Below are positions 1,136 through 53,183 of a DNA stretch of 64,000 nucleotides, piece after piece. Every line of letters starts with the position of its first letter. The stretch's first letter is position 1. The DNA is taken from positions 18,899 through 82,898 of the forward strand of contig JABMQJ010000018.1 of assembly GCA_013203315.1 (NCBI GenBank), written 5' to 3'. The position numbers and the translations under genes are program-made. The DNA comes from Candidatus Omnitrophota bacterium (GTDB taxonomy: Bacteria; Omnitrophota; Gorgyraeia; JABMRN01; RBG-13-46-9). Below the pieces are notes generated by a model. That model searched no databases. It had not been told where the DNA came from and saw nothing but the letters and a program-made list of their open reading frames with translations.

Positions 1136-2338
1136 ATGAATTTTACTCGAAAAAAGCTAAATATGGTTGTTGTAGGTGCAGGCATGTATGCTTGCGGAAG
1201 AGGAACGAAAGAATATGGGACAATTATTCCAGCTATCCTTGAATGGAAGAAGAAGGGTAGCCTTGGTGAAGTCTATGTTGTCGGCACAAGTTCGAAAAAT
1301 ATACGGATATCTAAAAATAAAATAAAAAAGCTTGAAAAATACACGGGTATAAAAGCTCCTTTGACATATTTTCCACAAAATCGAACGAATGATTTGCAAT
1401 GTTACAAAAAAGCGATACGCATGGTTCCCAAGCCTGCAGTCTGCATTATAGCCGTTCCGGATAATCTTCATAGTCGTATCGCAAGCGAAGCAATTAAAGC
1501 AGGTGTGCATACGTTTGTCGTAAAACCGCTCGCGCCGACAGTAAAAGAAGTTTTGAAGCTAGTTAGCGCTGGCAAGAGAAAAGGTGTTTATTGCGCCGTA
1601 GATTTTCATAAGCGCTTTGACCGCGCTAATATAAAATTAAAAGATACAATCTTGCAGAACGTAATAGGCGATCCTTTGTATTTTCTCGCTGAATATAGCC
1701 AGCGAAAGAGCATACCGCATAAAAGATTTAGAAAATGGGTTAAAAATACGAATATATTCCAATATCTCGGAATCCACTATCTTGATATCATATATTTTGT
1801 TACGGGCGCTACCCCTAAAAGGGCGATGGCAACCGGGCAAAAAGGATGGCTTTTTTCGAAGGGAATAAATACCTACGATTCAATTGAGGCCCACATAGAA
1901 TGGGAGACCTCATCCGGTAAAAAATTCACTTCGCATATATTAACAAATTGGATTGACCCTGAGTCGACATCCGCAATGTCAGACCAGAAAATTAAAGTAA
2001 TAGGTACTAAAGGAAGATTTGAGTCAGATCAGAAAAGAAGGGGCATAACGATTGTTACAGATGAAAAAGGCATAGAGGAACCTAATCCATATTTTTGTTC
2101 TGCTTACGGCAAAGACGGAGCAGCTTCTTACCGTGGTTATGGAATAGAGAGCATTCACCAGTTCTTAGAAGATGTAATGCAAATTACCGAATACAGGCTA
2201 AGCATAGAAGAGCTGGAAGATAAAAGACCTACTTTTAAACAATCTCTAGTACTAACGGCCACTCTGGAAGCTGTAAACAAAAGCCTTAAGAACAATAATC
2301 AATGGGTAAGGGTTGGGAGCGTGAAGCAATATGACTAA
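1136..2338 (+). CDS. Gfo/Idh/MocA family NAD(P)-dependent oxidoreductase
   Basis: VVGAGMY dinucleotide motif, IAVPDNLH, VKPLA (EKP-equivalent), DFHKRFD; GAGG RBS upstream. Confidence 0.8.
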   Translation: MNFTRKKLNMVVVGAGMYACGRGTKEYGTIIPAILEWKKKGSLGEVYVVGTSSKNIRISKNKIKKLEKYTGIKAPLTYFPQNRTNDLQCYKKAIRMVPKPAVCIIAVPDNLHSRIASEAIKAGVHTFVVKPLAPTVKEVLKLVSAGKRKGVYCAVDFHKRFDRANIKLKDTILQNVIGDPLYFLAEYSQRKSIPHKRFRKWVKNTNIFQYLGIHYLDIIYFVTGATPKRAMATGQKGWLFSKGINTYDSIEAHIEWETSSGKKFTSHILTNWIDPESTSAMSDQKIKVIGTKGRFESDQKRRGITIVTDEKGIEEPNPYFCSAYGKDGAASYRGYGIESIHQFLEDVMQITEYRLSIEELEDKRPTFKQSLVLTATLEAVNKSLKNNNQWVRVGSVKQYD

Positions 2339-3398
2339 GATTCGAATTCCTGTTAATAAACTTAAAAGTTTTGCTAAAGAAGTTTTGTTGAAAGCGGGTA
2401 CACGCAAAGATGTGGCGGAATATGTTGCCGAAGGTCTTGCACAAACTTCTTTAAGAGGCGTTGATTCACATGGCATAAGACTTTTTCCTCACTATCTTGA
2501 AGGTGTCAAAAAAGGGCGAATTAACCCAAAACCAAAATACAAATTTAAAAAAACATCTGCAACTACGGGACTATTTGATGCCGATCATACGTTTGGTCAT
2601 GCCGCAGGCATGGAAGCCGCCAAAAAAGCAGTTAAACTTGCTAGTGAAGCAGGCACCGGCCATATCGCTATTTATAACTCAAGTCACTTTGGAGCGGCGG
2701 CGTACTATGCGTTAGAAATAGCGAAACACGATATGATAGGGATGAGTTTTACAAACACAGACGCCCTTGTTAAAACATACGCAGGCAAAAGATCCTTTTT
2801 AGGTAATAACCCTATATGTTTTGCTGCCCCGTGCAAGGATGAAGAGCCGTTTTGTCTTGATATGGCTACGAGCATAGTAACCTTTAATAAGATAAAACAG
2901 CTATGTGCAGAAGGTAAAGAAGCTCCACCGGGAGTTGGCACAGATAAAGAAGGGATGGAAACCACCAAGTCATTCGATATAAGTATGCTTTTACCCATGG
3001 GTACCTATAAAGGCTACGGTCTTAGTATGGTTATAGAAATTTTATGTAGTTTACTGACAGGCGCACCTTACGGACCGCATATTCCAAAGATGTTTGAGCG
3101 GCCTATGAATGAAAAACGTTACCTAGGGCATTTCATAATAGCTATAAATATTGGTTGTTTCCAAAAAATAAATGTTTTTAAAGAACGCTTATCTTGTATG
3201 ATGAATGAGCTCAGAAGTGAACCGAGATTGAATGCGGAAATACCTATTCAAATAGCGGGTGATCCCGAGAAAAATGCTGCTAGAAAAAGAACGATCGAAG
3301 GCATTCCGGTAGATCAAGAAGAGTATGAAAGGTTCAAAAAAATCGCCAATGAATATAAAATTGTTATTGATTTCGATAAAAAAGGAGACCGACATTGA
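2331..3398 (+). CDS. Ldh_2 (malate/L-lactate/ureidoglycolate/sulfolactate dehydrogenase; AllD/ComC/YiaK-like) family oxidoreductase
   Basis: Family motifs RGVDSHG, SSHFGAA, GNNPICFAAP, LDMATS, GTYKGYGL. Confidence 0.88.
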   Translation: MTKIRIPVNKLKSFAKEVLLKAGTRKDVAEYVAEGLAQTSLRGVDSHGIRLFPHYLEGVKKGRINPKPKYKFKKTSATTGLFDADHTFGHAAGMEAAKKAVKLASEAGTGHIAIYNSSHFGAAAYYALEIAKHDMIGMSFTNTDALVKTYAGKRSFLGNNPICFAAPCKDEEPFCLDMATSIVTFNKIKQLCAEGKEAPPGVGTDKEGMETTKSFDISMLLPMGTYKGYGLSMVIEILCSLLTGAPYGPHIPKMFERPMNEKRYLGHFIIAINIGCFQKINVFKERLSCMMNELRSEPRLNAEIPIQIAGDPEKNAARKRTIEGIPVDQEEYERFKKIANEYKIVIDFDKKGDRH

Positions 3399-3508
3399 AT
3401 CTATTGAAAGTGCTGATCAAAAAAATAGCAATGTTTTTTGCTAAATATTTTTCAAACGGGAAAAAAAATGATTCGACTCCACCGGATGATTATTACCCTC
3501 TTTTTTAG
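3395..3508 (+). CDS. 37-aa microprotein MNLLKVLIKKIAMFFAKYFSNGKKNDSTPPDDYYPLF (not in the supplied ORF track)
   Basis: TTG start overlaps the TGA of the Ldh gene (TTGA). Strong AAAGGAG RBS at 3381-3387, 7 nt upstream. It fills the otherwise unexplained 122-nt gap, and its TAG is followed at once by the RBS of the next gene. Confidence 0.7.
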   Translation: MNLLKVLIKKIAMFFAKYFSNGKKNDSTPPDDYYPLF

Positions 3509-3520
3509 AAAGGAAACTTT

Positions 3521-4624
3521 ATGTTTTGGTTAATAATTTTCTTGATTTCAATAATATCTTTAGAAGTTGCATCGTATTTTATATACCGCAGCAATAAAGA
3601 CATAAAGGAAATTTTAAAAGAAATGCTTAAAAGGAGCCAGAAAGGTGACATAAGAACTTTTACGCCCAGATATATAGAGCATCCTTTTCTTGCATTTAGC
3701 CTAAACCCTGAATTCAAAAATTCTTTTGGAGAAAAAATCCATAACAAATATGGTTTCCGAAGCAATGATGATTTTTCCAACATTAAGGAGAAGGATCTTA
3801 TATATTGCGCAGGTGCAAGCTCTACATATTGCAATTTTATCGAAAAAAACGAGGATACTTGGCCTCACATCCTGGAAGGGGAATTACATCAAGAATTAAA
3901 CCACGATGACATAAGAGTTATAAACGGCGGCTGCGGTGCTTGGACGAGCTATCAGAGTTTAATAAGGTTTTCTGCCTGGGTAGATGTTATGAAGCCAAAA
4001 CTCGTTATTATATATCATGGGAAAAATGATTTTTCACCAATATTAAACGCTAAACCATCGGTGTCAGAAATCTATCCCGATTACGGAAACGTTATGCGTT
4101 CACTACGATTTGATAGTGTTGCGAGATATCTTCCTCGGCTTGCAAAATATACATATACGGGCAAGGTTTTGTATGGGCGTTACATAAATTCAAAGTACAG
4201 CAACGTATTATGGCACGTATATAATTTAAACAAATTGCTGACGCGAGAAACAGCCTTAAAGAATACACAGAGAATAGGCTCGAGAGAAAAAGATATTATA
4301 TTTTCAAGGTTTAAATCGTTTGCATCCCTGTGTAGCTATAGGGCAATTCCTATTCTTTTTGTTGCCCAGAAAGTAATAAGCGACATCTTCGAGCCTTACA
4401 TAAAGGAGCTGAATGAGCGAATAGCGACACTGGAGGACCGTGCCAATGGGTGTTTCGTGTATGATTTCGCTAAAGACGTTGTTGACAAAAAAAATCTGCT
4501 TTCTGACCACATACACTTTTCAGAAAATGGCACAAAAATTTTCAGTAAACTTTTAAAGAATTATATAGTACGCAATATCACTCCTTTTAAAGAAGGAAAA
4601 GAGAAAGTCCATGTCAGTAAATAG
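3521..4624 (+). CDS. Membrane-anchored SGNH/GDSL hydrolase-family protein (candidate periplasmic acyltransferase/esterase)
   Basis: N-terminal TM helix; block I GASST, block II INGGCG, block III HGKND, block V DHIH. Confidence 0.8.
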   Translation: MFWLIIFLISIISLEVASYFIYRSNKDIKEILKEMLKRSQKGDIRTFTPRYIEHPFLAFSLNPEFKNSFGEKIHNKYGFRSNDDFSNIKEKDLIYCAGASSTYCNFIEKNEDTWPHILEGELHQELNHDDIRVINGGCGAWTSYQSLIRFSAWVDVMKPKLVIIYHGKNDFSPILNAKPSVSEIYPDYGNVMRSLRFDSVARYLPRLAKYTYTGKVLYGRYINSKYSNVLWHVYNLNKLLTRETALKNTQRIGSREKDIIFSRFKSFASLCSYRAIPILFVAQKVISDIFEPYIKELNERIATLEDRANGCFVYDFAKDVVDKKNLLSDHIHFSENGTKIFSKLLKNYIVRNITPFKEGKEKVHVSK

Positions 4625-6281
4625 TAGTATCACAGATTTGGCTATTATTATTCCACCAGCAGGGCCAAAAAATTCAAATTATCCGCCTTACGGAGCCTTG
4701 TATATAGCCGGTGCACTAAAAGAGGCTGGGTACCAGACAGAAATAGTAAACGTTGACACGGAGCGGTATACAAATCAAGAGGTAGTTGAAAAAATAAGAA
4801 AATTAAACCCTACATATATAGGATTCAGTGGGATAGTGGCGCCATCCTACAAGTACATTAAAGATATAAGTTTTGATTTTAGGAAAGCGTTTGCGAACAA
4901 AGTGCAGATTTTAGGCGGAGGGTTAGCCAGTGCTGCCGAAGCCGTGCTGAAAAACACATCCATAAATATCATCGTCAGAGGCGAAGGAGATAGAACAATT
5001 GTAGAATTAATGGACTGCTTGAAAAAAGGCGGCGATCTGAAAAATGTGCCCGGAATTTGCTATAAAGAAGGAAGCAAGATTGCATATTCTGTCGATAGAC
5101 GCTTAATTATGAACCTAGATAGCCTCCCGTATCCCGCATTTGATTTGATAGACATGGATAAATATCTTCCTAACGGAGCTGAATTTATCCAAGGTTTTAC
5201 AAGAGGGATAGATGATAAAAGGATCTACCGCTTAAAAAAAAGTGGAAAAAGAAAGATGATTTCTTTTATGACAAGTCGAGGATGCTTTGGCAGGTGTGCT
5301 TTTTGTTTTAGAGCCTATCCCGGCCTAAGAATGTATTCGATAGACTACATTTTTAATTTTATAGACTACTGTATAGAAAAATTTAATGTAGGCTTTATTA
5401 CTTTTGCGGATGAATGTTTTGCACCGAATAAGAAAAGGAATTGGGAATTTATAGAAGAGTTTAAAAAAAGAAAACCAGATATTGTTTTTAGAATATTAGG
5501 AATGCGGGTGGATACTGTAGATAAAGAAATTCTAAAAGCTTATAAAGAAATCGGATGCTGGATGATAGAATACGGCTTCGAATCAGGCAGCCAAAAAATG
5601 CTTAATATAATAAGTAAAGATGTAACAGTAGAAGACAACAGGTGTGCGGCATTGTGGTCAAAAGAAGCAGGAATATTTACCATGCCGACCGCAGTTTTAG
5701 GCATGCCCGGCGAAACAAACGAAACCATACAGGAAACCATAAATTTTCTAAAATCGCTCTCGTTAGATTTCAAGCAATTTCAGTGGTCATATGCCCTTCC
5801 TATACCCGGATCACAACTTTATGACTTTGCAAAGCTAACAGGTGCCATAGATGACGATGATAAATATCTTTCGTCTTTGGTAGGGCCTGTTGGGCATGCG
5901 GGTATTTTTCACATCAATCTTACAGATCAACCGGACGAAGAGGTTGCAAACTGGGCTAGGAAAATAAGCCGAGAGCTGGATAATGATTTTTTTAATCGAA
6001 AGCTTAAGTATAAACATAAATTTATAAAAGAATTGATGCGTCTTATTGCCTTGATAGAGCTTCACCATAGAAAGAAAACCTTGTTTTCTGTGCTAAGGCT
6101 ACGGGTTAAAAACTTTTTTAAAAGACACAAAGTCGGAAAAAACCAAAAAGCAGGGATTTGCTTCAGGAAAAAAATAACAATAGACGTAGAACGATTTATT
6201 AATAAAAATTCATATTTTAATGTAGACAATGAAGTCTCGCTCAAGCGTATTAATAAAAAGCTAAACGAGATAGTAACATAG
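4611..6281 (+). CDS. B12-binding domain radical SAM protein
   Basis: N-terminal YPPYGALYIAG cobalamin-binding domain, RGEGD, SRGCFGRCAFC (CxxxCxxC), GFESGSQ, GMPGET. Confidence 0.9.
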   Translation: MSVNSSITDLAIIIPPAGPKNSNYPPYGALYIAGALKEAGYQTEIVNVDTERYTNQEVVEKIRKLNPTYIGFSGIVAPSYKYIKDISFDFRKAFANKVQILGGGLASAAEAVLKNTSINIIVRGEGDRTIVELMDCLKKGGDLKNVPGICYKEGSKIAYSVDRRLIMNLDSLPYPAFDLIDMDKYLPNGAEFIQGFTRGIDDKRIYRLKKSGKRKMISFMTSRGCFGRCAFCFRAYPGLRMYSIDYIFNFIDYCIEKFNVGFITFADECFAPNKKRNWEFIEEFKKRKPDIVFRILGMRVDTVDKEILKAYKEIGCWMIEYGFESGSQKMLNIISKDVTVEDNRCAALWSKEAGIFTMPTAVLGMPGETNETIQETINFLKSLSLDFKQFQWSYALPIPGSQLYDFAKLTGAIDDDDKYLSSLVGPVGHAGIFHINLTDQPDEEVANWARKISRELDNDFFNRKLKYKHKFIKELMRLIALIELHHRKKTLFSVLRLRVKNFFKRHKVGKNQKAGICFRKKITIDVERFINKNSYFNVDNEVSLKRINKKLNEIVT

Positions 6282-6283
6282 TT

Positions 6284-7027
6284 ATGAAAAAAATACTTTC
6301 CGGAAAACAGAAAATACTAGCCATGATACCTGCAAGAATGGGCAGTACAAGGCTTTCCATGAAAAATCTTGCACTTATCAATAAAAAACCTCTTATTTAT
6401 TATGCTGTTGGAGCCGCCAAAGCGTCAAAGATATTTGATGACATAATTATCAATTCCGAGGATGGTATATTCAAAAAAATAGCAGCGCGCTATAAAGTAA
6501 AATTTTATAAAAGGCCTATTAAATTAGGCGGTTCCTCTGTTAAATCCGATATGGTTGTATATGATTTTATCAAGAAAAACCCCTGTGATATCGTCGTATG
6601 GGTTAATACTATAGCACCGCTTCAAGTCGGGGAGGAAATTAAAAATATAGTAAAATATTTTGTTAATAAAAAACTCGATTCACTCATAACGGTTAAAGAC
6701 GAACGAGTTCACTGTATATATAAAGGCAAGCCCGTTAATTTCAAGAAAGAAGCCACTTTTGCTAAAACGCAGGATCTTTTGCCGGTTCAACCCTTTGTAT
6801 ATTCGGTTATGATGTGGCGAACGGATGTCTTTATGAGCACCTTCAAGAAAAAAGGGCACGCGCTTTTCTGCGGCAAGACAGCTTTTTATCCGGTAAGCAA
6901 GCTATCAACATTTATAATCAAGAGAAAAGAAGACCTTGCATTGGCAGATTTTATTATGCGTGCGATGAAAAAAAGATACAGGGTGTGCTATGACAAAGTT
7001 CTCAAAAATAGGAGAACAGGGAATTGA
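6284..7027 (+). CDS. Acylneuraminate/CMP-ulosonate cytidylyltransferase family (NeuA-like), atypical C-terminus
   Basis: IPARMGSTRLSMKN...KPLI nucleotide loop and KTQDL. The usual C-terminal DID is replaced by IIK. Confidence 0.8.
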   Translation: MKKILSGKQKILAMIPARMGSTRLSMKNLALINKKPLIYYAVGAAKASKIFDDIIINSEDGIFKKIAARYKVKFYKRPIKLGGSSVKSDMVVYDFIKKNPCDIVVWVNTIAPLQVGEEIKNIVKYFVNKKLDSLITVKDERVHCIYKGKPVNFKKEATFAKTQDLLPVQPFVYSVMMWRTDVFMSTFKKKGHALFCGKTAFYPVSKLSTFIIKRKEDLALADFIMRAMKKRYRVCYDKVLKNRRTGN

Positions 7028-8409
7028 AAAACTATAATGTCTCAATTATCATAAGAACCAAAAATGAAGAGCGCTGGATATCACAGTGCCTGAACGCTGT
7101 TTTGAGCCAAACCTATAGGGATTTCGAAATCATCATAGTTGATAACGAAAGTCAGGACAAAACAATAGAGAAGGCAAAACAATTTAAGGAACGGCTTAGC
7201 GATAAAAATAGGCTGAAAGTCATAGAATGCAGTGACTATCTTCCGGGAAAAGCGTTAAACATGGGAATAGAAAAAGCTACCGGGACATTTATTGCATGTC
7301 TATCTGGGCATTGTATTCCTGCAAACGATAAATGGCTGGAAAGTCTTTTAGAGCCTTTTGGTACAGACCAGCGTGGCGTTATAGCCGGGGTATACGGACG
7401 GCAGCAGCCGATGTCTTTTACGTCTGACTCTGATAAAAGAGATTTGACCCTGGTTTTCGGGATGGACAAGAGGGTCCAGAAAAAGGATAGCTTCTTCCAC
7501 AATGCCAACAGCATGATAAGGCGGGATGTATGGAAAGATGTGCGATTCGATGACAAGGTCACGAATATTGAAGACAGGGTATGGGCAAAAGAGGTACTGG
7601 ATAGAAAAAAGGAGATTGTATATACACCCGATGCCAGCGTATATCATTATCACGGGATACACCAAAATGGAAATAGCGAAAGATGTGCCAACGTAGTTCG
7701 AATAATGGAAGGCATGCATTCCGATTACAGCAAAAAATACATCGAAATCGAAAAGCTGAACATAGTTGCCCTAATACCCATAAAAGACGAAATCAAATAC
7801 TTAAATAAAAAACCTCTTATTGAATACACCGTAAAAAGGGCCTTGGATTCAAAATATGTTAAAAAAGTAGTAGTTTCAACCGATAATGAAAAAATGGCCA
7901 GCCTCGCAAAAAAACTCGGAGCAGAAGCACCCTTTATAAGAGACCCGTATCTTTCAAAAGAAGACGTAAGTATAAGTAATGTGCTAGAATTTTCACTCAA
8001 AAAAATGGAAGAAGAAAAAATATTTCCAGATCTTATTGTATCACTCGAGGCTACCTTTCCGTTCCGGCCAAGCGGTCTGATAGACGGGATGATAATAGAG
8101 CTGGCAAAAAGAGGGTTAGATAGTATAAGGGCCGTCAAAACGGAAAATAAGGCTATTTGGAAAGAAGAACGCGATAGGAATATAAAACAGCTTGATGAGG
8201 GAGTAACACCCCGCAAATTAAAGGACCCAACTTTCATAGAACTCAGGGGAGTGGGGACCGTAACACACCCAGAGTTCTTAAGAAACGGTTCTCTTTTTGG
8301 GCAAAAAAATGGTATTTACGAAGTAAATAACCCCTATTCGCACATTGAGGTAAGAGACGAGGAGGATTTTGAAATGGCTTCGGTTCTCATGAAGGAATGG
8401 TTTAAATAA
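7024..8409 (+). CDS. GT2 glycosyltransferase fused to a degenerate NeuA-like cytidylyltransferase domain
   Basis: N-half: SIIIRTKNEE, IVDNESQD, FHNANS, IEDRVW. C-half: KPLIEY, VVVSTD, APFIRD, EATFPFR, but without the ARxGSK loop. Confidence 0.8.
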   Translation: MKNYNVSIIIRTKNEERWISQCLNAVLSQTYRDFEIIIVDNESQDKTIEKAKQFKERLSDKNRLKVIECSDYLPGKALNMGIEKATGTFIACLSGHCIPANDKWLESLLEPFGTDQRGVIAGVYGRQQPMSFTSDSDKRDLTLVFGMDKRVQKKDSFFHNANSMIRRDVWKDVRFDDKVTNIEDRVWAKEVLDRKKEIVYTPDASVYHYHGIHQNGNSERCANVVRIMEGMHSDYSKKYIEIEKLNIVALIPIKDEIKYLNKKPLIEYTVKRALDSKYVKKVVVSTDNEKMASLAKKLGAEAPFIRDPYLSKEDVSISNVLEFSLKKMEEEKIFPDLIVSLEATFPFRPSGLIDGMIIELAKRGLDSIRAVKTENKAIWKEERDRNIKQLDEGVTPRKLKDPTFIELRGVGTVTHPEFLRNGSLFGQKNGIYEVNNPYSHIEVRDEEDFEMASVLMKEWFK

Positions 8410-8412
8410 AAC

Positions 8413-9885
8413 ATGAAAATTTATTTTGTATACCCAGACATCTCATCCTTTCACGGTCTTCCGTACCATGCTGGACTTGCGTCGATTGCATCAACACTGA
8501 TTGAGCATGGTCACGAAGTCAGGGTAAGCTATTTCGATAATATCAATAAGACGAAAGACATCGTACAAGATATACGCGCTTTTAAAGCTAAGTTGGTTGG
8601 CTTTACTACCGTTGAAACTCAATCTCGATATGCAAAACACCTCGCCTCGGAAATAAAAAAAACGCATCCTTGCTTTATTGTCTCTGGTGGTCCTCATGCA
8701 ACATTAGCACCGGAAAGCATGCTTGATAATAATAGTTCTATTGACGCGGTTATTATCGGAGAGGGAGAGCGTGCAGTGACGGAACTAGTTGAAAAACTTG
8801 AAAAAGGCGAAAGCTGGTCGCACCTGAATAACATTGTTTATCGTGATAAAAAAACAGAGCACTTGATAAAGAACCGGTTAAATCCCCTTATTGATAATCT
8901 TGACTCCTTAAGCTACCCGGCTACAGAGCTTTTTCCGTATCAAGATATAATAAACCGCCATAATATAGCGATGTTCCATTTTAATAGAGGGTGCCCTTAT
9001 CGGTGTGGTTTTTGCTCGAACGTTGCCCTTGGCAAGATCTACGATTTGCCGTCGAATCGTGTAAGATTCCGGTCAGTTGAAAGCGTGATTGATGAGATTA
9101 ATGCTACGCTTTCGAAATATAGATTACGTGATGACACGGTTCTGCATTTCAGCGACGATTTGTTCACATTAAATAAAAAGTGGATAACTCATTTCTGCGA
9201 TCTTTACAGAGAAAAAATCGGTAGACCATTCTGGTGCACCGGAAGATCAAATCTTATGACCGAAGAGATATGTGCGGTTCTAAAAAAGGCAGGGTGTGTA
9301 TTACTTATGATGAGTGTTGAGTCGGGCAACGATTACATTCGCAACAAAGTGATGTTGCGTGATATAGACAGGGAGACAATGTTCAGGTCCTTTGATTTGT
9401 GCCACAAGCACGGAATCAATACCTTGGCAACGTGTATTATAGGGCTTCCGTTCGAAACAATAGAGATGATAGAGGATTCCATCAAGACCGTGACCAAGCT
9501 CAAGTCCATTACTTCATACGGTATCAATATTTTTTATCCATATCAGGGGACATATTTGAGGAAAGTTTGTGAAGAGAAGGGGCTCATGTCGTCACGAATC
9601 GAGAATGATTTTATAGAACGTAAGGGTTCGATTTTAAACCTGCCCGATTTGCCTAATGATAAACTGTTATACTATTATAACAATTGGATAAGTCTGATTA
9701 TGCGACATAAGCTGGCAAAGGAAAGAATAAAATATGCGCTACGTAACTGGTGGCAAGTGGTTAGAAAAACAGCCTTTGGCGACAAAATACGCCACATTAT
9801 AAACAACACAAGGCTTGGGAAAGCATTCAAAAAATATATAATGAAACACGTTTGGAGCCGCAATTACGCGGAAAGAACTGTATGA
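8413..9885 (+). CDS. B12-binding domain radical SAM protein
   Basis: GGPHAT, IGEGE, NRGCPYRCGFC, DDLF, VESG, GLPFET. Confidence 0.9.
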   Translation: MKIYFVYPDISSFHGLPYHAGLASIASTLIEHGHEVRVSYFDNINKTKDIVQDIRAFKAKLVGFTTVETQSRYAKHLASEIKKTHPCFIVSGGPHATLAPESMLDNNSSIDAVIIGEGERAVTELVEKLEKGESWSHLNNIVYRDKKTEHLIKNRLNPLIDNLDSLSYPATELFPYQDIINRHNIAMFHFNRGCPYRCGFCSNVALGKIYDLPSNRVRFRSVESVIDEINATLSKYRLRDDTVLHFSDDLFTLNKKWITHFCDLYREKIGRPFWCTGRSNLMTEEICAVLKKAGCVLLMMSVESGNDYIRNKVMLRDIDRETMFRSFDLCHKHGINTLATCIIGLPFETIEMIEDSIKTVTKLKSITSYGINIFYPYQGTYLRKVCEEKGLMSSRIENDFIERKGSILNLPDLPNDKLLYYYNNWISLIMRHKLAKERIKYALRNWWQVVRKTAFGDKIRHIINNTRLGKAFKKYIMKHVWSRNYAERTV

Positions 9886-11771
9886 AAATAAAGAAGCTTG
9901 TATTTGTCGATAATATCACTGGCTGCGGAAAAGGGGATGCCGATACATTATATATTGCGTTAAAACCAGCTGCATATTCCTATCTCAAAAAGCAGGGCGC
10001 GAATGTGCATTCCACGATTAATTATTTTACCAACGATTCGCACAAAAAAGCGTTAGAGAAATCCGAAGCACTTATGAAATGGATAAGAAGGGAATTGAAA
10101 TTTAAGAGCCTTGACATAGGTGTGAACCGGGCATACAGCGATCTTTTTTCTTTCTGGATGCGGCTCGAGATCCACTATTTTTTATGGACAACGGAGATTA
10201 TCAGGAATGCAGCTATTCTGCATAAACCCGAGATAATCGCCGCTGCCCTTCCGGGTAAATACGCCAGCATGAAGCTATCCATAGAGTCCGAAGAATGCTA
10301 TTTAGGTACCCTAGCACAGGCAATGGCACGTAACGAAAATATAGAATTCGAAAATCTCAGTAAAAGCAGAATTAAACACGCAAAAAATTTTCCAGATATC
10401 GATACGAGAAGAATAAAACACCTTATAAAATTTATATTGAAATACGTTAAGTTTTACATATGGCAAAGGGTCTTATATTTTAGAAATATGAATAATAAAA
10501 AACGTCCTGTTTTTTTTGCGACGATGCACTACAATATGCACAGTCTCGCCAATGACTTAAAGAAAGCAATTCCGGATAGAAAATTTTACCTATTCACAGG
10601 CCCGATTCTTTCTTACACAAAAATACCGCGCATATTTATAAAAATGTTTGAAAGACGTTTTGCAAAAACTATACTAGGACAGAAAGAACTATTGGATGGT
10701 TTTGCGACAAAACTTGGCAAAGAAACAACTCTTTTTTCCTCAAATGGCATTTCTTTTTCTTCCATGCTTTCCCATAAAATAAAGGCCAATATCACAGACC
10801 ACATAATAAGTTTCTATCTTTGGACGGCAAAACTTGATAGTTGTCTGGATATTATAAAACCTGGCATGGTCATATCAAACGGTAACCGTTCAGACGATAT
10901 CGCCCTCGCAGAGCTATGTTTAAGAAAAAAAATCCCTGACATATTAATATCGCACGGTTCTCATGTATGTCCGAAAAACAAATACGAATGCATAGAATGG
11001 GGTGAGCATGGGGTAGCTTTTTTAAAGGCGCCGTTTTCATCCCTGGTATTGCAGTCGCCTCTTGCAGAAGGATATATTAAAGCCTTTCCAACGCAAAGCA
11101 ATATATTTCGTAGCAAACCCATTCTTTGGGGTAAGCCGGCAGAACCTAATATAAAGGCGAATTTATCCAAGGAATTGCTCGAGTTAAAACATGAAAAGCA
11201 GAATGTAAAAATCATAGTGCACGCGGGCACACCCAAAATGAGCAATAATCTACGATTATATGTTTACGAAACGCCCGATGAATATCTGGAAGCGCTTTCT
11301 GATCTGGCGAATACAGTGAAGAGCATGAAAGAGACAGTTCTCATCGTAAAGTTTCGGCCGTCACCTGAAATCAGCGTTAATAACCTTAGAGAGCGTATAC
11401 CTTTTTCAGAAAACGTGATTTTAAGTGTGGAGGAACCGTTCAATGCTGTACTGGAAATGGCGGATGTATTGATAAGCTTTTCTTCTACCACTATCGAAGA
11501 GGCATTGCAAAAAAAGATTCCTGTTTTGCTTTACGGCGGACAAGGTAGGTATAAACACGTTTCTGCCGGAAGCATTACACTCGGAGATCCCGTTAAGCCG
11601 GAAGCCGTTTATCATGTGGAAAATAAGCAAGACTTGAAATATGCTATAAAAACGATTTTGGGGTTAAATATCAATGGTAAAAATAGAGATAACGATTTAT
11701 TTAAACCGTATATATATCCTGACCACGAGACGAAACCGCTTCTTAATTTGATAGAAAAAGAGGTCGGATGA
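9882..11771 (+). CDS. Orphan GT-B-like polysaccharide biosynthesis protein (candidate CMP-sugar or CDP-alcohol transferase)
   Basis: Start moved to ATG 9882 (ATGA overlap with the previous stop). ISHG, IVKFRP and ADVLISFSSTTIEEAL...IPV are typical of GT-B C-terminal domains. Confidence 0.55.
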   Translation: MKIKKLVFVDNITGCGKGDADTLYIALKPAAYSYLKKQGANVHSTINYFTNDSHKKALEKSEALMKWIRRELKFKSLDIGVNRAYSDLFSFWMRLEIHYFLWTTEIIRNAAILHKPEIIAAALPGKYASMKLSIESEECYLGTLAQAMARNENIEFENLSKSRIKHAKNFPDIDTRRIKHLIKFILKYVKFYIWQRVLYFRNMNNKKRPVFFATMHYNMHSLANDLKKAIPDRKFYLFTGPILSYTKIPRIFIKMFERRFAKTILGQKELLDGFATKLGKETTLFSSNGISFSSMLSHKIKANITDHIISFYLWTAKLDSCLDIIKPGMVISNGNRSDDIALAELCLRKKIPDILISHGSHVCPKNKYECIEWGEHGVAFLKAPFSSLVLQSPLAEGYIKAFPTQSNIFRSKPILWGKPAEPNIKANLSKELLELKHEKQNVKIIVHAGTPKMSNNLRLYVYETPDEYLEALSDLANTVKSMKETVLIVKFRPSPEISVNNLRERIPFSENVILSVEEPFNAVLEMADVLISFSSTTIEEALQKKIPVLLYGGQGRYKHVSAGSITLGDPVKPEAVYHVENKQDLKYAIKTILGLNINGKNRDNDLFKPYIYPDHETKPLLNLIEKEVG

Positions 11772-12760
11772 TACAAAAGAAAGAATTGTTAAATGAAATG
11801 AAGAATTCAAAGGCATTAAAATCGCTTGCTGTTTTTGGCAAAAAGCGTTTTTACAACATATATCATAGGGCAAGGCTGATTAAAACCGAATTTCCATCAG
11901 AAATCTGGATTGAAAATACCAATTGTTGTAACGCCTCTTGCGTGATGTGCCCTCGTGAAAAACATACAAGAGCGCAGGGGTTCATGGATTTTTCACTTTT
12001 TGAAAAGCTAGCTAAGGAAATATCGCATTTTGGCAATATTGTAAAGAGGGTACATTTACACAACTATGGTGAACCCTTACTAGATAGAGACCTTGCCCGG
12101 CGCATAAGAACGGCGAAAGATTGCGGTATTAAGCATACATATATTGTTACCACTGCTTCGCTTCTTACCGTCGCGAAATCCAAAGAGATTATAGAAGCAG
12201 GCCTTGATGAGATGAAAATTAGTTTCTATGGGACCGATCAAAAAACGTATAACGATACAATGGTAGGACTTGACTTTTACAAGACACTTACCAATGTGGC
12301 CGATTTTTTTAAAACAAGAAAGAAAATTGGGAAAAAGAATCCCCGAGTAGTCTTGCAATATCTGCCAACAGACAGCAATAAATCAAAGACAGAAGATTTT
12401 TTCCGTATCTTAAAACCGCTTATCGAAGAAGAAGTGGGAGATTGTTTCAATATTTTTGAACTCCACAATTATGGGTCCGGAAGATCCTATGTTAAATTGG
12501 GAGATATAACGCGGATTTGTCATTTTCCCTGGCGCACCATGGTTATTTTGCATGATGGGAAAGCAGTGCTCTGTTCACCCGATTATAATGGATTGCAGGT
12601 AGTTGGTGACACTAACACGAACACGATAAAAGAAATATGGAACGGTAATAAATATAAAAAGGTAAGGCAGGATTTTAAAAAATTAGAGTATCAAAATTAC
12701 TCAGTTTGTAAAGAGTGTACCGCTGTGCGAGAAACTATGTACCCTAAAATAAATAGATAG
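11768..12760 (+). CDS. Radical SAM protein with SPASM/twitch domain
   Basis: CNASCVMC, NYGEPLL; C-terminal CHFPW...LCSPD...CKEC. Confidence 0.9.
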   Translation: MIQKKELLNEMKNSKALKSLAVFGKKRFYNIYHRARLIKTEFPSEIWIENTNCCNASCVMCPREKHTRAQGFMDFSLFEKLAKEISHFGNIVKRVHLHNYGEPLLDRDLARRIRTAKDCGIKHTYIVTTASLLTVAKSKEIIEAGLDEMKISFYGTDQKTYNDTMVGLDFYKTLTNVADFFKTRKKIGKKNPRVVLQYLPTDSNKSKTEDFFRILKPLIEEEVGDCFNIFELHNYGSGRSYVKLGDITRICHFPWRTMVILHDGKAVLCSPDYNGLQVVGDTNTNTIKEIWNGNKYKKVRQDFKKLEYQNYSVCKECTAVRETMYPKINR

Positions 12761-12771
12761 GATCATATCAA

Positions 12772-14568
12772 ATGAAGGTTACAAAATTTGTATTTCGTTA
12801 TCTCAAAGTTTATCCGGCTCTCTCATTAACGATTTTAGCGCTTATCATTATAACATCACTTTTTGAAGGTGCAAGTTTTAGCGTCCTTATTCCGCTAATA
12901 CAAAGCATGATTGGTGGAAGCACTAACCTGTTTGATAAAATCCCATTCATAAACACCTTATGGCAGCCTTTTTCATCTATGGGGCAAGCAGAAACGGTGT
13001 CACTTATCTTTATTTTGATGCTTGGGCTGCTTTTGATAAAAAATGTATTTGTGTATTTTTCCGGCGTTCTCATAGCAAAATTAGGATTTGGAGCGACACG
13101 GGACTTCAGAGTAAAACTTATGGACAATTTACTTGATTACGATATGCGTTTTTTTGATAGCGCTAAAACAGGCCACATAATAGCCAGCATTAATACCGAA
13201 ACCGAGCGTATGGGGAATTTTATAAAGGCAGTTCTTCAGCTTATTGCCTTTTCCGGAAAAGTAATTGCATATATGGTGCTTTTATTTCTAATATCATGGA
13301 AGGTAAGCATCTTGGTATTTTCATTGGTTGCAATAGTTTTAATACCTATTGAGTCTATCATGAAGAAGATAAGGGACGTAAGCATGTTTATATCAAGCGC
13401 TGTCGCAAATTATAATTATAAATTAATAGAATTACTCAGCGGTATACGACTTATAAGGGCATGCGGTACCGAGAGTTTGGAGAAAAAAGCTTTTAAAACC
13501 AAAGCGGACGACATCTTTAATTTTCGCTATAAAGGGCATAAGTATATAAATCTTATCATACCCTTGTCGGAGGTTTTAATATTCACCCTTATCGTGATTA
13601 GCGTTCTGGTCCTTATTAATGTTGTAAAAGTAGATATTGCAAGCACGTTCCCTTTGATGGCTACATATCTACTCGCTATGGTAAGGATGCTTACGCAGAT
13701 AAACACGCTAAACAATAACCGCTCTGCTGCATTGAAGAAATTAGCATCATTTACGGTCTACGATAGATTTTATGACGAAAGAGGTAAAAAGGCGATAAAA
13801 AACGGGCAGAAAAAAATCAATGTTTTTTCTAATTCAATAGAATTTAAAAAAGTAAATTTTTCTTACACAAAGGACAAAGAAGTCTTGAGAGATGTAAGCA
13901 TGAAAGCCCCAAAAGGAAAAGTAACCGCCCTTGTGGGTGCCTCCGGAGCAGGCAAGAGTACAATTGTTAATTTAATATTGAGGTTTTACGAAGTTAATTC
14001 GGGAGATATATTGGTTGACGGAGTAAGTTTAAAAAGTTTTGATTTGAAAAGCTGGAGGCAAAAAATCGGTCTTGTTTCGCAGGATGTATTTATTTTTAAC
14101 ACAAGCGTGAAAGATAATATTGCCTATGGCCACGCGCGAATAGAGGAAGAAAAAATAGTCGCCGCTGCCAAAACAGCTAATGCGCATGATTTTATAATGA
14201 GCTTCCCCAATCAGTATGACACAATTTTAGGGGAAAGAGGCGTGAGACTTTCAGGCGGACAAAAACAGCGAATTTCCATAGCCAGAGCCATCATACATAA
14301 TCCCGAGATACTAATTCTTGACGAGGCAACCAGTTCGCTTGATACAAAAACAGAAATATTAATAAATGAAGCTGTTGACAGACTTACTAAAGACCGAACA
14401 GTTATAGCTATTGCGCATCGGCTATCTACGATTCTGCATGCAGACAATATTATTGTTTTAGACGAAGGCAGGGTTGTTGAAAGCGGCACACATCCAAGTC
14501 TGATAAGCGAAAAGGGTCTTTATAAACAATTATATGATGTGCAGTTTAGTTCTCAGGTAGCAAGATGA
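12772..14568 (+). CDS. MsbA/PglK-like ABC exporter (fused TMD+NBD), candidate lipid-linked glycan flippase
   Basis: Hydrophobic N-half; Walker A GASGAGKS, signature LSGGQ, Walker B ILDEATSSLD, IAHRLST. Confidence 0.9.
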   Translation: MKVTKFVFRYLKVYPALSLTILALIIITSLFEGASFSVLIPLIQSMIGGSTNLFDKIPFINTLWQPFSSMGQAETVSLIFILMLGLLLIKNVFVYFSGVLIAKLGFGATRDFRVKLMDNLLDYDMRFFDSAKTGHIIASINTETERMGNFIKAVLQLIAFSGKVIAYMVLLFLISWKVSILVFSLVAIVLIPIESIMKKIRDVSMFISSAVANYNYKLIELLSGIRLIRACGTESLEKKAFKTKADDIFNFRYKGHKYINLIIPLSEVLIFTLIVISVLVLINVVKVDIASTFPLMATYLLAMVRMLTQINTLNNNRSAALKKLASFTVYDRFYDERGKKAIKNGQKKINVFSNSIEFKKVNFSYTKDKEVLRDVSMKAPKGKVTALVGASGAGKSTIVNLILRFYEVNSGDILVDGVSLKSFDLKSWRQKIGLVSQDVFIFNTSVKDNIAYGHARIEEEKIVAAAKTANAHDFIMSFPNQYDTILGERGVRLSGGQKQRISIARAIIHNPEILILDEATSSLDTKTEILINEAVDRLTKDRTVIAIAHRLSTILHADNIIVLDEGRVVESGTHPSLISEKGLYKQLYDVQFSSQVAR

Positions 14569-16085: not shown

Positions 16086-17606
16086 ATGCGAGTGTTATTC
16101 GTTAATTTTAATCTTAATTCGACGCCGGGCATAAATAACGGGTTGGCAATTCTGTCTTCTGTTTTAAAGAAAAAAAACCACGAGGTCAGGCTTCTTTTTC
16201 TTTGCAATGAGCTCGGTTATGATTTAGATTTTGCACGTATAAAAAAAGATGTATTGGATTCCAGGCCGGATATCATAGGAATTTCTCTGATGGAAACACA
16301 ACTCAAGCACATGAAGGCTTTTTTAAAAAACCTGAGAAAATATTATAAGGGTTTAGTTGTCTGCGGAGGGCCGCATCCTACGATGAATCCCGAAGACGTG
16401 CTTTCTATAAAAGGCATAGATGTTGTGTGCGTCGGAGAAGGCGAGGGCGCTATTCTTGAATTTATCGAAGCATTAAAAGCCGGAAGGGATTATAAAGACA
16501 TAAAGAACTTATGGTTCAATTCAGATAACGGTAAAATCATCAAAAACAGGCTGCGTTTTTTCACATCGCTTGAGACCTTGCCCCCGGAGGATAAAGAACT
16601 CTTCGACCTTGATAAGTTGCTCCCTCTAAAAAATTATCAACTGGAGGTTATGCTTGGAAGGGGATGTATGTATCAATGCACCTACTGTATTAATAAGCCC
16701 TTTATAGAGCAGTATAGACAGTTGTGTGAAAATGAGATTACTGCAAAAGATTATATGCGAGTTAAAAAAAGTTGTACCGTAATAGAAGAAATTAAGAATA
16801 GCGTGTTACGGCATCCTGAGATCAAAAAAATAGCTTTTATTGATGACGATTTTCTTATGTATACAAATTTCGCGAATGACTTTTTTGAAAAATACAAAAA
16901 AGAAATCAATCTCCCATTCATGTGCAATATAAATCCTGTGTCGTTTAATGTGTCCAAGGGGCATCTGTTAAAGGAAGCCGGTTGTGATGATATACGTTTT
17001 GGCGTAGAGAGCGGTAGCGAGAGGGTAAAAAATGACATCATGAAAAGGCCTATTCGTAACAGGAGCATTATAAGCGCTTTTAATATCACTAAAAAACTAG
17101 GTTTAATGACCAGCTCATTTAACATGATAGGCTTGCCTACGGAAACCAAGGAAGAGATTCTCGAAACCCTGAAACTCAATGCTGCCATAGGGCCCGATAG
17201 CATGAAGGTAATGACTTTCTACCCGTTTAAAAATACACCTCTTTATGATGTATGCCGAGAAATGGATCTAATAGATGAAGAAAAAAAGATGGAGCTGGAT
17301 AATTACGATACTTTTACCTGTCTTAGATTTCCTGCGGAACATCAGCTCTTTTTAAGGAAGGTTCAGAGTGTATTTAACTGGTACATCAATGCATTTTTAG
17401 AGAATGAAGCCTCCGGGGAGTACTCAAAAATGATAAGGGATGTAGAAAAGATGACAGAAAGTCGTTGGGACAAGTTCGACCATCTCTCTTGCGATAAGGA
17501 ACTGTCAGAGAAAATGAGAAGAAAAAACGCGCCGCATTATTCAAAATTCGTAAATAGAAGTTTAGCAGTAAAATATCCAAGTAAACATTGTGAGAAAAAA
17601 AGGTGA
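16086..17606 (+). CDS. B12-binding domain radical SAM protein
   Basis: GGPHPT, VGEGE, GRGCMYQCTYC, DDDF, GVESGS, GLPTET. Confidence 0.9.
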   Translation: MRVLFVNFNLNSTPGINNGLAILSSVLKKKNHEVRLLFLCNELGYDLDFARIKKDVLDSRPDIIGISLMETQLKHMKAFLKNLRKYYKGLVVCGGPHPTMNPEDVLSIKGIDVVCVGEGEGAILEFIEALKAGRDYKDIKNLWFNSDNGKIIKNRLRFFTSLETLPPEDKELFDLDKLLPLKNYQLEVMLGRGCMYQCTYCINKPFIEQYRQLCENEITAKDYMRVKKSCTVIEEIKNSVLRHPEIKKIAFIDDDFLMYTNFANDFFEKYKKEINLPFMCNINPVSFNVSKGHLLKEAGCDDIRFGVESGSERVKNDIMKRPIRNRSIISAFNITKKLGLMTSSFNMIGLPTETKEEILETLKLNAAIGPDSMKVMTFYPFKNTPLYDVCREMDLIDEEKKMELDNYDTFTCLRFPAEHQLFLRKVQSVFNWYINAFLENEASGEYSKMIRDVEKMTESRWDKFDHLSCDKELSEKMRRKNAPHYSKFVNRSLAVKYPSKHCEKKR

Positions 17607-17618
17607 GGTAGGTGCAAT

Positions 17619-18599
17619 ATGTTCAATAAGAACCCAAGTGTTTCCATTGTTTTTCCGATTTTTAACGAAGAAGAGACTATAAAACTTCTATATCAACTTG
17701 TGAGAGATGTCTGCACAAAGTCCAACGTTGACTATGAGATGATATTCGTGGATGACGGCAGTACGGATAATTCACTAAATGTGGTCAAAGATTTGAAGAA
17801 CCAAGACAAAAAAGTTGCCTTTGTTTCGTTATCGCGCAATTTTGGTCATCAAAGTGCGCTTTTTGCAGGCATGTCTTATGCCACAGGGGATGCCGTAATT
17901 ACAATGGACGCCGACTTGCAGCATTCACCGTCATTAATCCCAAAAATGATCGATTTATGGCGCAACGGCTACGAAGTTGTATATACGATGAAGAAAAAAT
18001 ATGATTTACCGTTTATAATGTCATTAGTGATAAAGCTTTTCTATTGGTTTATTTCGAAGATATCCGACATACGTTTGAGCTTCGGTCAATCCGACTTTAG
18101 ATTGCTCGACAGAAAGGTTCTTGATGCTATTTTGGAAATTCCGGAATACCATAAATTTTTACGTGGGCAAATTGAATGGGTGGGTTTTCGACAATACGGT
18201 CTTATGTATGATGTAGAAAAGCGTCACAGCGGTAAATCTAAAATTTCTTATCGAAAGCGCCTTTCGTTTGCCTTAGACGGCATTTTTGCATTTTCCAGTT
18301 ATCCGTTACATTTATTAATGTCTTTTAGCATTGGCGTGGCAATATTATCTTTTCTTTATATATGCATCGAGTTAACCGGATGGATGCTGAAGGCATTAAA
18401 TATTTGCCCCAATTTAATCATACCCCATGGGTGGGTTACTCTAATCGTTTCGGTGTTTTTCCTGGGAAGCTTGCAACTTATGGCCATAGCCCTTGTTGGC
18501 GGATATATCGGAAGAACCTACGACCAAACGAAGGGGCGCCCCGTTTTCATCATAAAAGAGTCGTCGGTTCAGAAGAAAACCCAAGCAGGAGCTCGCTGA
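17619..18599 (+). CDS. GT2 polyprenol-phosphate glycosyltransferase (GtrB/ArnC-like)
   Basis: FNEE, VDDGSTD, LSRNFGHQ, MDADLQH, DFRLLDRKV, two C-terminal TM helices, RPVFI. Confidence 0.9.
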   Translation: MFNKNPSVSIVFPIFNEEETIKLLYQLVRDVCTKSNVDYEMIFVDDGSTDNSLNVVKDLKNQDKKVAFVSLSRNFGHQSALFAGMSYATGDAVITMDADLQHSPSLIPKMIDLWRNGYEVVYTMKKKYDLPFIMSLVIKLFYWFISKISDIRLSFGQSDFRLLDRKVLDAILEIPEYHKFLRGQIEWVGFRQYGLMYDVEKRHSGKSKISYRKRLSFALDGIFAFSSYPLHLLMSFSIGVAILSFLYICIELTGWMLKALNICPNLIIPHGWVTLIVSVFFLGSLQLMAIALVGGYIGRTYDQTKGRPVFIIKESSVQKKTQAGAR

Positions 18600-53169: not shown

Positions 53170-53183
53170 GTTACTTCAAAAGT

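Follow-up and report, generated by a model that had tools for sequence, protein, structure and literature searches.

Microprotein partners of envelope-modifying enzymes are easily missed, and that DltX is the acyl carrier of a pathway known for decades came to light only recently. The C-termini of DltX and of PatA-type membrane-bound O-acyltransferases (MBOATs) carry the motif FXYXXF, and the source describes its invariant Tyr as being acylated by the MBOAT on the outer face of the membrane and as donating the acyl group to the serine of an SGNH protein (PMC12148441). A second point of comparison is the crocagin pathway, for which the source presents CgnD as a ‘putative esterase’ that frees the C-terminal Ile-Tyr-Trp core from the 21-aa CgnA, the leader of which comprises 18 aa and is rich in positive charges, and CgnC as a predicted dioxygenase (PMC10070186). 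The pathway also has the peptide-binding proteins CgnB and CgnE. The subject of this report is a 37-codon gene at positions 3395–3508 of a 64,000-nucleotide stretch of Candidatus Omnitrophota DNA (assembly GCA_013203315.1, contig JABMQJ010000018.1, positions 18,899 to 82,898 of the forward strand), hereafter called the window. It encodes a microprotein with a Tyr-bearing C-terminal tail and lies directly before a gene for an SGNH protein. A preliminary description of this DNA had put the peptide forward as a candidate DltX-like acyl shuttle.

The features of the microprotein gene and its partner, in window coordinates, are as follows.

3383..3387, + strand: Shine-Dalgarno sequence AGGAG of the microprotein gene, 7 nt 5′ of the TTG (read from the sequence)
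3395..3508, + strand: microprotein gene, TTG start, 37 codons plus a TAG stop (read from the sequence and from homologues)
3395..3451, + strand: Lys-rich amphipathic helix, residues 1–19, maximum Kyte-Doolittle hydropathy 1.27, no transmembrane (TM) helix
3479..3505, + strand: C-terminal tail PPDDYYPLF, residues 29–37 (from the family alignment)
3494–3496, + strand: codon of Tyr34, the Tyr that is invariant in the family
3511..3514, + strand: AGGA ribosome-binding site (RBS) of the SGNH gene, within the 12-nt gap after the microprotein stop
3521..4624, + strand: gene for an SGNH/GDSL-fold protein of 367 aa (Pfam Lipase_GDSL_2, E 2e-10)

In the product, (M)NLLKVLIKKIAMFFAKYFSNGKKNDSTPPDDYYPLF (the translation of 3395–3508), a polar linker joins an amphipathic N-terminal stretch rich in Lys to the closing residues PPDDYYPLF, and the helix at 3395..3451 is presumed to serve as an in-plane membrane tether. 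The TTG start shares bases with the TGA stop of the preceding Ldh_2 gene (2331–3398) in a TTGA overlap, and the TAG at 3506–3508 is separated by 12 nt from the ATG of the SGNH gene (3521–4624). The preliminary description had read a hidden open reading frame (ORF) with a strong RBS and TTGA coupling, and had seen in its product a basic amphipathic helix, a linker and a DDYYPLF end with no clear TM helix; all of this was accurate.

By length alone an ORF of 37 codons is not significant, since 12 kb of the window hold 97 ORFs of at least 30 aa. It can be taken as a real gene because other genomes carry homologous ORFs in the same place. When 41 related genomes were searched at the DNA level, the Ldh_2–SGNH junction was located in G008, a genome of another genus of the same family, where the two genes flank a 40-aa ORF ending in IPPDDFYPLF. 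With the SGNH protein as query, public collections yielded three genome loci and one metagenome locus; the sequence of L036 is the same as the G008 locus, and with the window included the SGNH-orthologue loci number five distinct ones. A small ORF stands directly 5′ of the SGNH orthologue in four of these five, namely the window, G008, L038, where it ends in MPPDDYYPLF, and L035, where it ends in EPPHDIYPMW. The gap between the two genes is 12 nt in G008, 13 nt at L038 and 27 nt at L035, and L038 has GAGGAG ahead of its microprotein start in the position equivalent to that of the AGGAG here. At the remaining locus, L037, a radical SAM gene stops 12 nt before the SGNH gene and no microprotein ORF is present. 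The strict tail motif gave no match in the genome of L037 (G419), and the lone match to a loose pattern, which sits within a histidine-kinase gene, was rejected. G346 supplied a fifth copy of the microprotein; its glycan cluster is a different one, and the copy directly follows a distant SGNH-like gene.

The compared genomes, in which the peptide is kept, have flanking genes about 53% identical as proteins and 67–70% as DNA. Synonymous codons differ across the five microprotein loci at the tail's invariant residues (Pro, Pro, Asp, Tyr, Pro) and at its near-invariant Leu, and it is this variation at invariant residues that indicates selection on the protein. Within the phylum, a degenerate 30-nt tail pattern matched two genomes, G000 and G346, out of 401. 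In a second draw from the same phylum, centred on G418, it matched two of 400 and returned only known copies, those of G418 (the genome of L035) and of the G346 contig, the match listed under G745 being the G346 copy with identical contig number and coordinates. The reversed pattern, used as a control, had no match in either draw (401 and 400 genomes). The whole viral-contig collection yielded a single pattern match, inside a 307-aa ORF rather than at the end of a small one, and this was set aside as out of context. No RNA run covering window 2900–4700 was listed.

A profile built from the five members and run against 1.84 billion representative proteins returned 25 matches at E ≤ 1e-3, 24 of which are proteins of 30–78 aa in which the match reaches the last residue; the 25th, a 703-aa repetitive protein aligned in its middle, was dropped. 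A word-indexed homologue search with a two-sequence alignment, limited to proteins of 20–70 aa, gave no candidate. An order-wide search with a hidden Markov model found real matches in two of 18 genomes, and 13 of the 18 gave scores of 10–19 bits over the helix part only, which were discounted. Among longer proteins (82–2000 aa) only P0051 appeared (99 aa, E 1.4), which looks like an ordinary family member whose start was miscalled. That search, in which the nine-residue tail alone could not have scored, brought up no fused tail. Taken over these comparisons, the pattern of conservation shows the 37-codon ORF to be a genuine conserved gene whose tail is under selection at the protein level.

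For the family analysis we used 27 sequences, those of the window, G008 and G346 together with the 24 database proteins. Their tails share the consensus PPxDxYPx[F/W]-COOH, so that the terminal motif singled out in the preliminary description is indeed kept, as the best-conserved part of the protein, and the nine positions, counted back from the C-terminus, are occupied as follows.

Position −9: Pro in 26 of 27
Position −8: Pro in 27 of 27
Position −7: Asp in 22 of 27
Position −6: Asp in 27 of 27
Position −5: free (F, R, Y, I or N)
Position −4: Tyr in 27 of 27
Position −3: Pro in 27 of 27
Position −2: Leu in 23 of 27
Position −1: aromatic in 27 of 27, Phe in 16 and Trp in 11

The N-terminal part comes in two forms, which track the last residue. 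The 16 members ending in Phe, the window’s included, have a Lys/Arg-rich helix with a high hydrophobic moment and a hydropathy below that of a TM helix, and the 11 ending in Trp have a true TM helix, with three to six Lys/Arg ahead of the tail, mostly directly after the helix. Neither form belongs to a known family as far as was searched: Pfam has no match for the window copy, and none of the 27 matches DltX. A search of PDB sequences with the microprotein profile gave nothing usable, only chance matches to the ‘GIPPD’ of ubiquitin, and the ESM Atlas returned one unnamed cluster at 0.83, under the useful range. Weak matches of four of the 27 members to the Pfam YxzE-like bacteriocin family (best E 0.0024) were taken as compositional and rejected. 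A literature search on DltX, acyl shuttles and SGNH-linked microproteins turned up only Dlt and PatAB papers. The microproteins thus make up a bona fide family of 30–46 aa without an earlier name, the marks of which are a membrane tether and a PPxDxYPx[F/W]-COOH tail; the family is rare and so far known only from uncultivated bacteria.

The second constant of the family is its company. The order Ldh_2–microprotein–SGNH is found in the window, G008 and L038; at L035 it is Ldh_2–radical SAM–microprotein–SGNH, the radical SAM gene having moved to the other side of the pair. In G346 the microprotein is of the TM type and begins 2 nt after the gene of a 357-aa distant SGNH-like protein, which compares with the SGNH protein of the window at E 0.033 in BLASTP and E 0.02 in hhalign, with all four SGNH blocks aligned. 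A second SGNH-like gene lies upstream (weak match to the NCBIfam LA_2486 GDSL family). The G346 cluster has only a nucleotidyltransferase and one family 2 glycosyltransferase (GT2) in common with the window. Of the 13 ORFs that reach 90 aa within 14 kb of the G346 pair, 10 were scanned, and no radical SAM enzyme, ABC exporter, MBOAT or AT3 protein was seen among them. An SGNH or SGNH-like gene is therefore found 2–27 nt from the microprotein in all five loci with DNA context, as the preliminary description would have had it for homologues. Five of the 20 database microproteins that were looked up also match a member of the SGNH family in source and in longest-contig size (5733, 3404, 39777, 89275 and 2289), and since those SGNH members were found independently of the microproteins this gives support of an indirect kind. 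Judged from gene order, microprotein and SGNH enzyme are coupled genetically within surface-glycan clusters. The coupling has its exceptions, as G836 has a homologue of the G346 SGNH-like gene (58%/47% identical) that is followed directly by an oxidoreductase gene, with no microprotein. Both this absence and that at L037 are to be read with caution, the L037 contig ending inside the SGNH gene and G836 being 78% complete.

The SGNH partner has a single hydrophobic helix near its N-terminus (residues 3–21 in a TM scan) followed by a Lys/Arg-rich stretch, and its catalytic residues are intact: Ser100, GKND at 167–170 (with Asn169-Asp170) and Asp329/His332 in DHIH. Ser100 and His332 are invariant and Asp329 nearly so (at least 90%) across 24 SGNH homologues. 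The superfamily blocks I, II, III and V are present, with the conserved GxS, G, GxND and DxxH, on a flavodoxin-like fold. Pfam, the TM scan and the family alignment thus bear out the earlier reading of a TM-anchored SGNH protein with Ser and DxxH intact. This family too is rare, with 24 proteins at E ≤ 1e-3 among 5.8 billion. An AlphaFold2 model computed from the 24 homologues has a mean predicted local distance difference test score of 85, and Foldseek gives it 91 matches in the PDB at E ≤ 0.001, almost all of those listed being SGNH/GDSL esterases. The top match is CgnD (8a2n, E 9e-8, template-modelling score 0.48/0.58, 12% identity, root-mean-square deviation 7.6 Å), with TesA, Axe2 and Bacteroides acylhydrolases closely behind; PatB ranks 33rd, DltD is absent from the best 50 of the 91, and the gene at 3521–4624 has no match to the Pfam DltD family. 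The domain also contains four conserved cysteines. In the N-terminal helix (window 3521–3590, residues 1–23; homologues P0002–P0024) Glu15 is near-invariant and is followed by conserved Tyr19, Tyr22 and Arg23, and the second SGNH-like protein of G346 has a similar AEGxLRxxW; that a charged residue is conserved within an anchor helix is suggestive of a specific contact, either intramembrane or interfacial.

The SGNH homologues inspected have zero to three Lys/Arg ahead of the N-terminal helix, with the exception of P0023–P0025, which are the most distant, and the close homologues have a Lys/Arg-rich stretch after it. The TM-type microproteins show the same arrangement of charges, and the 16 amphipathic members are without an export signal. 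Because Lys/Arg clusters follow the helix in both proteins, the positive-inside rule predicts the tail and the SGNH catalytic domain to be on the cytoplasmic side, and with both of them there nothing would have to be shuttled across the membrane.

The explanation that we prefer, with a probability of roughly 40%, is that the microprotein is a membrane-tethered accessory partner and that, at the cytoplasmic face, its tail docks on the SGNH domain. It would be made together with the adjacent enzyme through translational coupling and held at the inner membrane by its tether, be this a single TM helix or an in-plane amphipathic helix rich in Lys, both proteins then being at the cytoplasmic face of that membrane. 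The tail, extended and stiffened by its prolines, with a Tyr hydroxyl and a free aromatic C-terminus, would dock, without covalent attachment, in a pocket or groove that is conserved in the SGNH domain. It would thereby position or gate the enzyme on a glycan intermediate, membrane-bound and either lipid-linked or nucleotide-activated, that belongs to the surrounding surface-polysaccharide pathway. Interchangeable anchors combined with an invariant tail fit such a tether plus docking peptide, and the linkage to SGNH genes persists despite the radical SAM gene changing side at L035 and the different glycan cluster of G346. The lack of a loader enzyme (no MBOAT in the genome and AT3 below threshold only, as detailed below) also counts in its favour. 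The role would be accessory and not obligatory, because the SGNH orthologue of L037 and the homologue of the second SGNH family in G836 occur without a microprotein.

Small membrane-protein regulators of envelope enzymes offer parallels for such a role. PmrR acting on LpxT, MgrB on PhoQ and AcrZ on AcrB are, like the present family as proposed here, peptides of 30–50 aa at the inner membrane with one specific binding partner, encoded with or near the pathway that they modulate and dispensable in some lineages. PmrR, MgrB and AcrZ, however, act in the main through the TM helix and are poorly conserved, whereas here the anchor is interchangeable and a soluble nine-residue tail is invariant.

Several points weigh against a docking partner. 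We infer the topology, that the two proteins bind each other, and a role, without covalent linkage, in regulation or positioning; the topology is derived solely from the positive-inside rule applied to sequence, and the four cysteines of the SGNH domain could equally mean an extracytoplasmic, disulfide-bonded domain. The binding of the tail to the SGNH domain is likewise deduced from conservation and gene linkage. The Tyr at −4 is never Phe although the residue beside it at −5 swaps freely between F, Y, R and I, a pattern that hints at chemistry of the hydroxyl and not at docking alone. That L037 and G836 are without the microprotein is weak evidence for an accessory role, and readable DNA context is to hand for five loci, the contig-size matches being indirect. 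A complex prediction from the SGNH and microprotein alignments scored 0.00/0.02 against a mark of 0.32 and is not evidence either way.

The hydroxyl brings back the comparison with DltX. As in the DltX/DltB/DltD system of teichoic acid D-alanylation, where DltB is the MBOAT and DltD is SGNH-like, a microprotein of about 40 aa lies beside an SGNH-fold enzyme and has its function-bearing part at the extreme C-terminus. As in the MBOAT–SGNH systems, the SGNH partner encoded beside the candidate carrier has an intact Ser/His/Asp. As in DltX, to judge from the published motif, Tyr is four residues from the end and the last residue is aromatic, and 11 of the 27 members are single-pass membrane proteins. 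The Tyr at −4 and the aromatic at −1 coincide with the Y and the last F of the published FXYXXF; at −6 the family has Asp throughout in place of the first Phe of that motif, and at −3 Pro throughout. Unlike DltX, the window copy is amphipathic and not a TM protein, and its tail is predicted to be cytoplasmic where that of DltX is extracellular. Unlike the Dlt and PatAB systems, the family has an invariant Pro after the Tyr, there is no MBOAT, and the SGNH partner has a generic GDSL-type fold.

Profile searches point the same way. The Pfam DltX profile (PF12459) matches none of the 27 members at E ≤ 10 and, searched over the whole genome, gives only 10.6 bits elsewhere on the contig and nothing at 3395–3508; this profile scores above its cut-off in two of 14 well-known genomes used as controls. 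The MBOAT profile (PF03062) has no match in the 1.5-Mb, 97%-complete genome, with positive controls, and the AT3 profile (PF01757) has only one of 20.2 bits, under the 31-bit cut-off, on another contig of the genome. The preliminary description had reported neither enzyme in these 64 kb, which holds for the ORFs scanned, and had wondered about MBOATs in the rest of the genome, where none was found. Membership of the DltX family is consequently rejected, for want of a profile match and of an MBOAT, because Asp takes the place of Phe, and given a location predicted to be cytoplasmic. A functional analogy to DltX is possible, one with neither a loader nor a reason to shuttle. Of the shuttle first proposed, the conserved tail, the linkage to SGNH genes and the positions of the Tyr and the aromatic residue have stood, and the family membership and the trans-membrane topology have not.

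What can be built on the analogy is a relay at the cytoplasmic membrane face, which we think doubtful and yet the best of the alternatives. Tyr34 would be transiently acylated, or otherwise esterified, and would exchange its load with Ser100 independently of any MBOAT, as a free-standing microprotein–SGNH unit serving different glycan pathways. With an MBOAT, DltX plays such a part for DltD, and the fused tail of PatA/AlgI-type MBOATs does so for PatB-type SGNH proteins. The Tyr and the terminal aromatic are where the published motif has its Y and last F in 27 of 27 members. The Tyr is never swapped for Phe while −5 varies between F and Y, an SGNH or SGNH-like gene always adjoins the microprotein, and the two tandem SGNH-like genes of G346 could in principle be loader and unloader. 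To our knowledge an MBOAT has been thought indispensable for acyl-tyrosine systems, and this genome has none by PF03062, nor an AT3 above threshold; the scanned ORFs around the G346 pair include neither. No DltX match was obtained in the 27 members or above cut-off in the genome, and −6 is invariantly Asp and not Phe. A cytoplasmic location would remove the need for a shuttle, because a cytoplasmic SGNH enzyme can use acyl-CoA directly. SGNH orthologues without a microprotein exist, and the structural comparison places DltD outside the best 50 matches and PatB at rank 33.

The likeness of the SGNH model to CgnD leads to another alternative, which we consider rather unlikely. Here the microprotein would be a precursor in the manner of RiPPs, peptides made by the ribosome and modified after translation, and a CgnD-like SGNH protein would clip a short C-terminal peptide (approximately xYPL[F/W]) off it; the radical SAM enzymes may modify the peptide first, and the ABC transporter would export it. 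CgnD is the best structural match of the model, and the general plan is shared: in both systems a short peptide, positively charged in its N-terminal part and tiny and aromatic at its C-terminal end, is encoded next to an esterase-like hydrolase, and the layout of CgnA resembles the Lys-rich N-terminus and aromatic C-terminus of the microprotein. A B12-binding radical SAM enzyme, a radical SAM-SPASM enzyme, an ABC exporter and glycosyltransferases are also encoded nearby. Against this, the CgnD score is barely above those of generic GDSL esterases, at 12% identity and 7.6 Å, and a PDB search gives no match of the SGNH protein to CgnD at the sequence level. The resemblance is a real lead for a clipped precursor, though as a match between a model and a structure it is marginal. 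In 11 of the 27 members a TM helix takes the place of a soluble leader, and across the family it is the leader that varies while the supposed core and its flank are invariant. The G346 pair is in a different sugar cluster, with no radical SAM enzyme or ABC exporter among the ORFs scanned there, and the radical SAM-SPASM gene is missing from the orthologous L035 module. Of the crocagin pathway only the hydrolase finds a fold resemblance here; no dioxygenase-type Pfam family, which is what CgnC is predicted to be, was found in the window ORFs scanned. The TM-anchored variants, the position of the pair within polysaccharide clusters and the lack of sequence similarity to CgnD all set it apart from crocagin. 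The same comparisons weaken a variant raised in the preliminary description, in which the peptide is a substrate of the adjacent B12 radical SAM enzyme: the G346 copy has no radical SAM gene among the ORFs scanned, and at L035 that gene is on the other side of the microprotein–SGNH pair.

It is improbable that the ORF is a regulatory leader or arrest peptide. Pro-Pro-Asp is a pause that depends on elongation factor P, and TnaC, SecM and MifM are arrest peptides; by analogy PPDD...P-x-aromatic-stop would act in the ribosome tunnel and tune the translation of the SGNH gene, the released peptide being functionless. Conservation is indeed focused on the last nine residues, Pro-Pro-Asp included, and the ORF stops 12–27 nt before the SGNH start with the SGNH RBS in the gap. 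The RNA around the microprotein stop and the SGNH RBS, however, has no conserved structure (consensus energy −0.57 kcal/mol, four pairs), and the close spacing is ordinary translational coupling, not a switch of the SecM/MifM type. In G346 the microprotein follows the SGNH-like gene and is 235 nt from the next one, which encodes an SpvB-domain protein. A membrane-anchor N-terminus is kept in 27 of 27 members, and this would be pointless for a leader, because a peptide of 37–46 aa should still be in the exit tunnel when translation terminates.

The weakest alternative, a non-functional chance ORF in a short intergenic spacer, could appeal to the abundance of short ORFs in the window, to the missing Pfam match and to the word-indexed search that found no homologue of near length, but it is already contradicted by a peptide that outlasts the divergence of its flanking genes, by synonymous codon variation at invariant residues, by the same C-terminus on 24 independent small proteins and by the zero matches of the reversed-pattern control. 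The remainder of the probability falls to something not considered here.

Whichever of the functional readings is correct, this is a second, unrelated family of microproteins in which a Tyr-bearing C-terminal tail is tied to SGNH enzymes. If the tail docks on or gates its partner, it would add a clean new case of glycan tailoring regulated by a microprotein. If the Tyr is used chemically, the acyl-tyrosine paradigm would be widened, and if the relay is correct, the chemistry of DltX, PatA and OatA would exist also as a free-standing microprotein–SGNH unit. The invariant nine-residue tail is in any case an easy handle for annotating such genes in metagenomes, and rarity and uncultivated hosts limit the immediate experimental reach.

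The genes around the pair form a module with the following members in the window.

1136..2338, + strand: GFO/IDH/MocA oxidoreductase, first gene of the conserved module, with orthologues in L006 (the G008 locus with the microprotein ORF) and L035
2331..3398, + strand: Ldh_2-family dehydrogenase, upstream neighbour of the microprotein gene and module member (Pfam E 2.5e-104; L035 orthologue 66% identical)
4611..6281, + strand: B12-binding radical SAM enzyme, the L035 orthologue of which lies upstream of the microprotein instead
6284..14568, + strand: remaining module common to L035, with a cytidylyltransferase, a GT2–cytidylyltransferase fusion, a soluble protein of about 630 aa and an ABC exporter

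Orthologues of the L035 and window modules are 40–66% identical and comprise the GFO and Ldh_2 proteins, the radical SAM enzyme, the SGNH protein, the cytidylyltransferase, the GT2–cytidylyltransferase, the protein of about 630 aa and the ABC exporter. Relative to L035, the window module has extra B12 radical SAM and radical SAM-SPASM genes interleaved. The soluble protein of about 630–656 aa has no Pfam family (window 9852–11771; L035 6622–8502; 40% identical). A G346 protein (L041, 9014–10984) matches NCBIfam TIGR04326, ‘surface carbohydrate biosynthesis protein’, at E 6.6e-25 and has no BLASTP match to the window copy at 9852–11771 at E ≤ 1e-3. The SpvB-domain gene of G346 lies at 2–1057 on the minus strand of L041 (G346:C4), encodes a secreted protein (Pfam SpvB, E 1.1e-22) and is cut by the contig end.

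As a whole the 64-kb window is one same-strand surface-glycan region, with many GT2, GT4 and GT9 glycosyltransferases, epimerases, and cytidylyl- and nucleotidyltransferases, as well as a GT4-family WecA-like initiating transferase, a Wzy_C protein, two AsnB-like amidotransferases and the ABC exporter. A carbamoyltransferase, which the preliminary description had named among the neighbours to look for, was not seen among the window ORFs scanned. Four B12 radical SAM genes (4611–6281, 8413–9885, 16086–17606 and 28620–29951) and the radical SAM-SPASM gene (11768–12760) are spread among the glycosyltransferase and cytidylyltransferase genes, which for a polysaccharide cluster is unusually dense in radical SAM enzymes. 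Polytopic membrane proteins of the PMT_2 type (ArnT/GT-C-like) number five, at 21497–23413 and 48466–54797, four of them in tandem. For two further large polytopic proteins, at 45263–47380 and 56786–58207, with some 15 and 10 helices predicted, Pfam gave no match at E ≤ 0.01. The ORFs 17619–18599 and 18362–19441 overlap by 238 nt and the ORFs 36042–37067 and 36908–38305 by 160 nt; the methyltransferase and Wzy_C genes probably do not begin at the first start codon but further downstream. A gene of the uracil-DNA glycosylase family (61213–61902) is found between glycosyltransferase genes close to where the glycan region ends.

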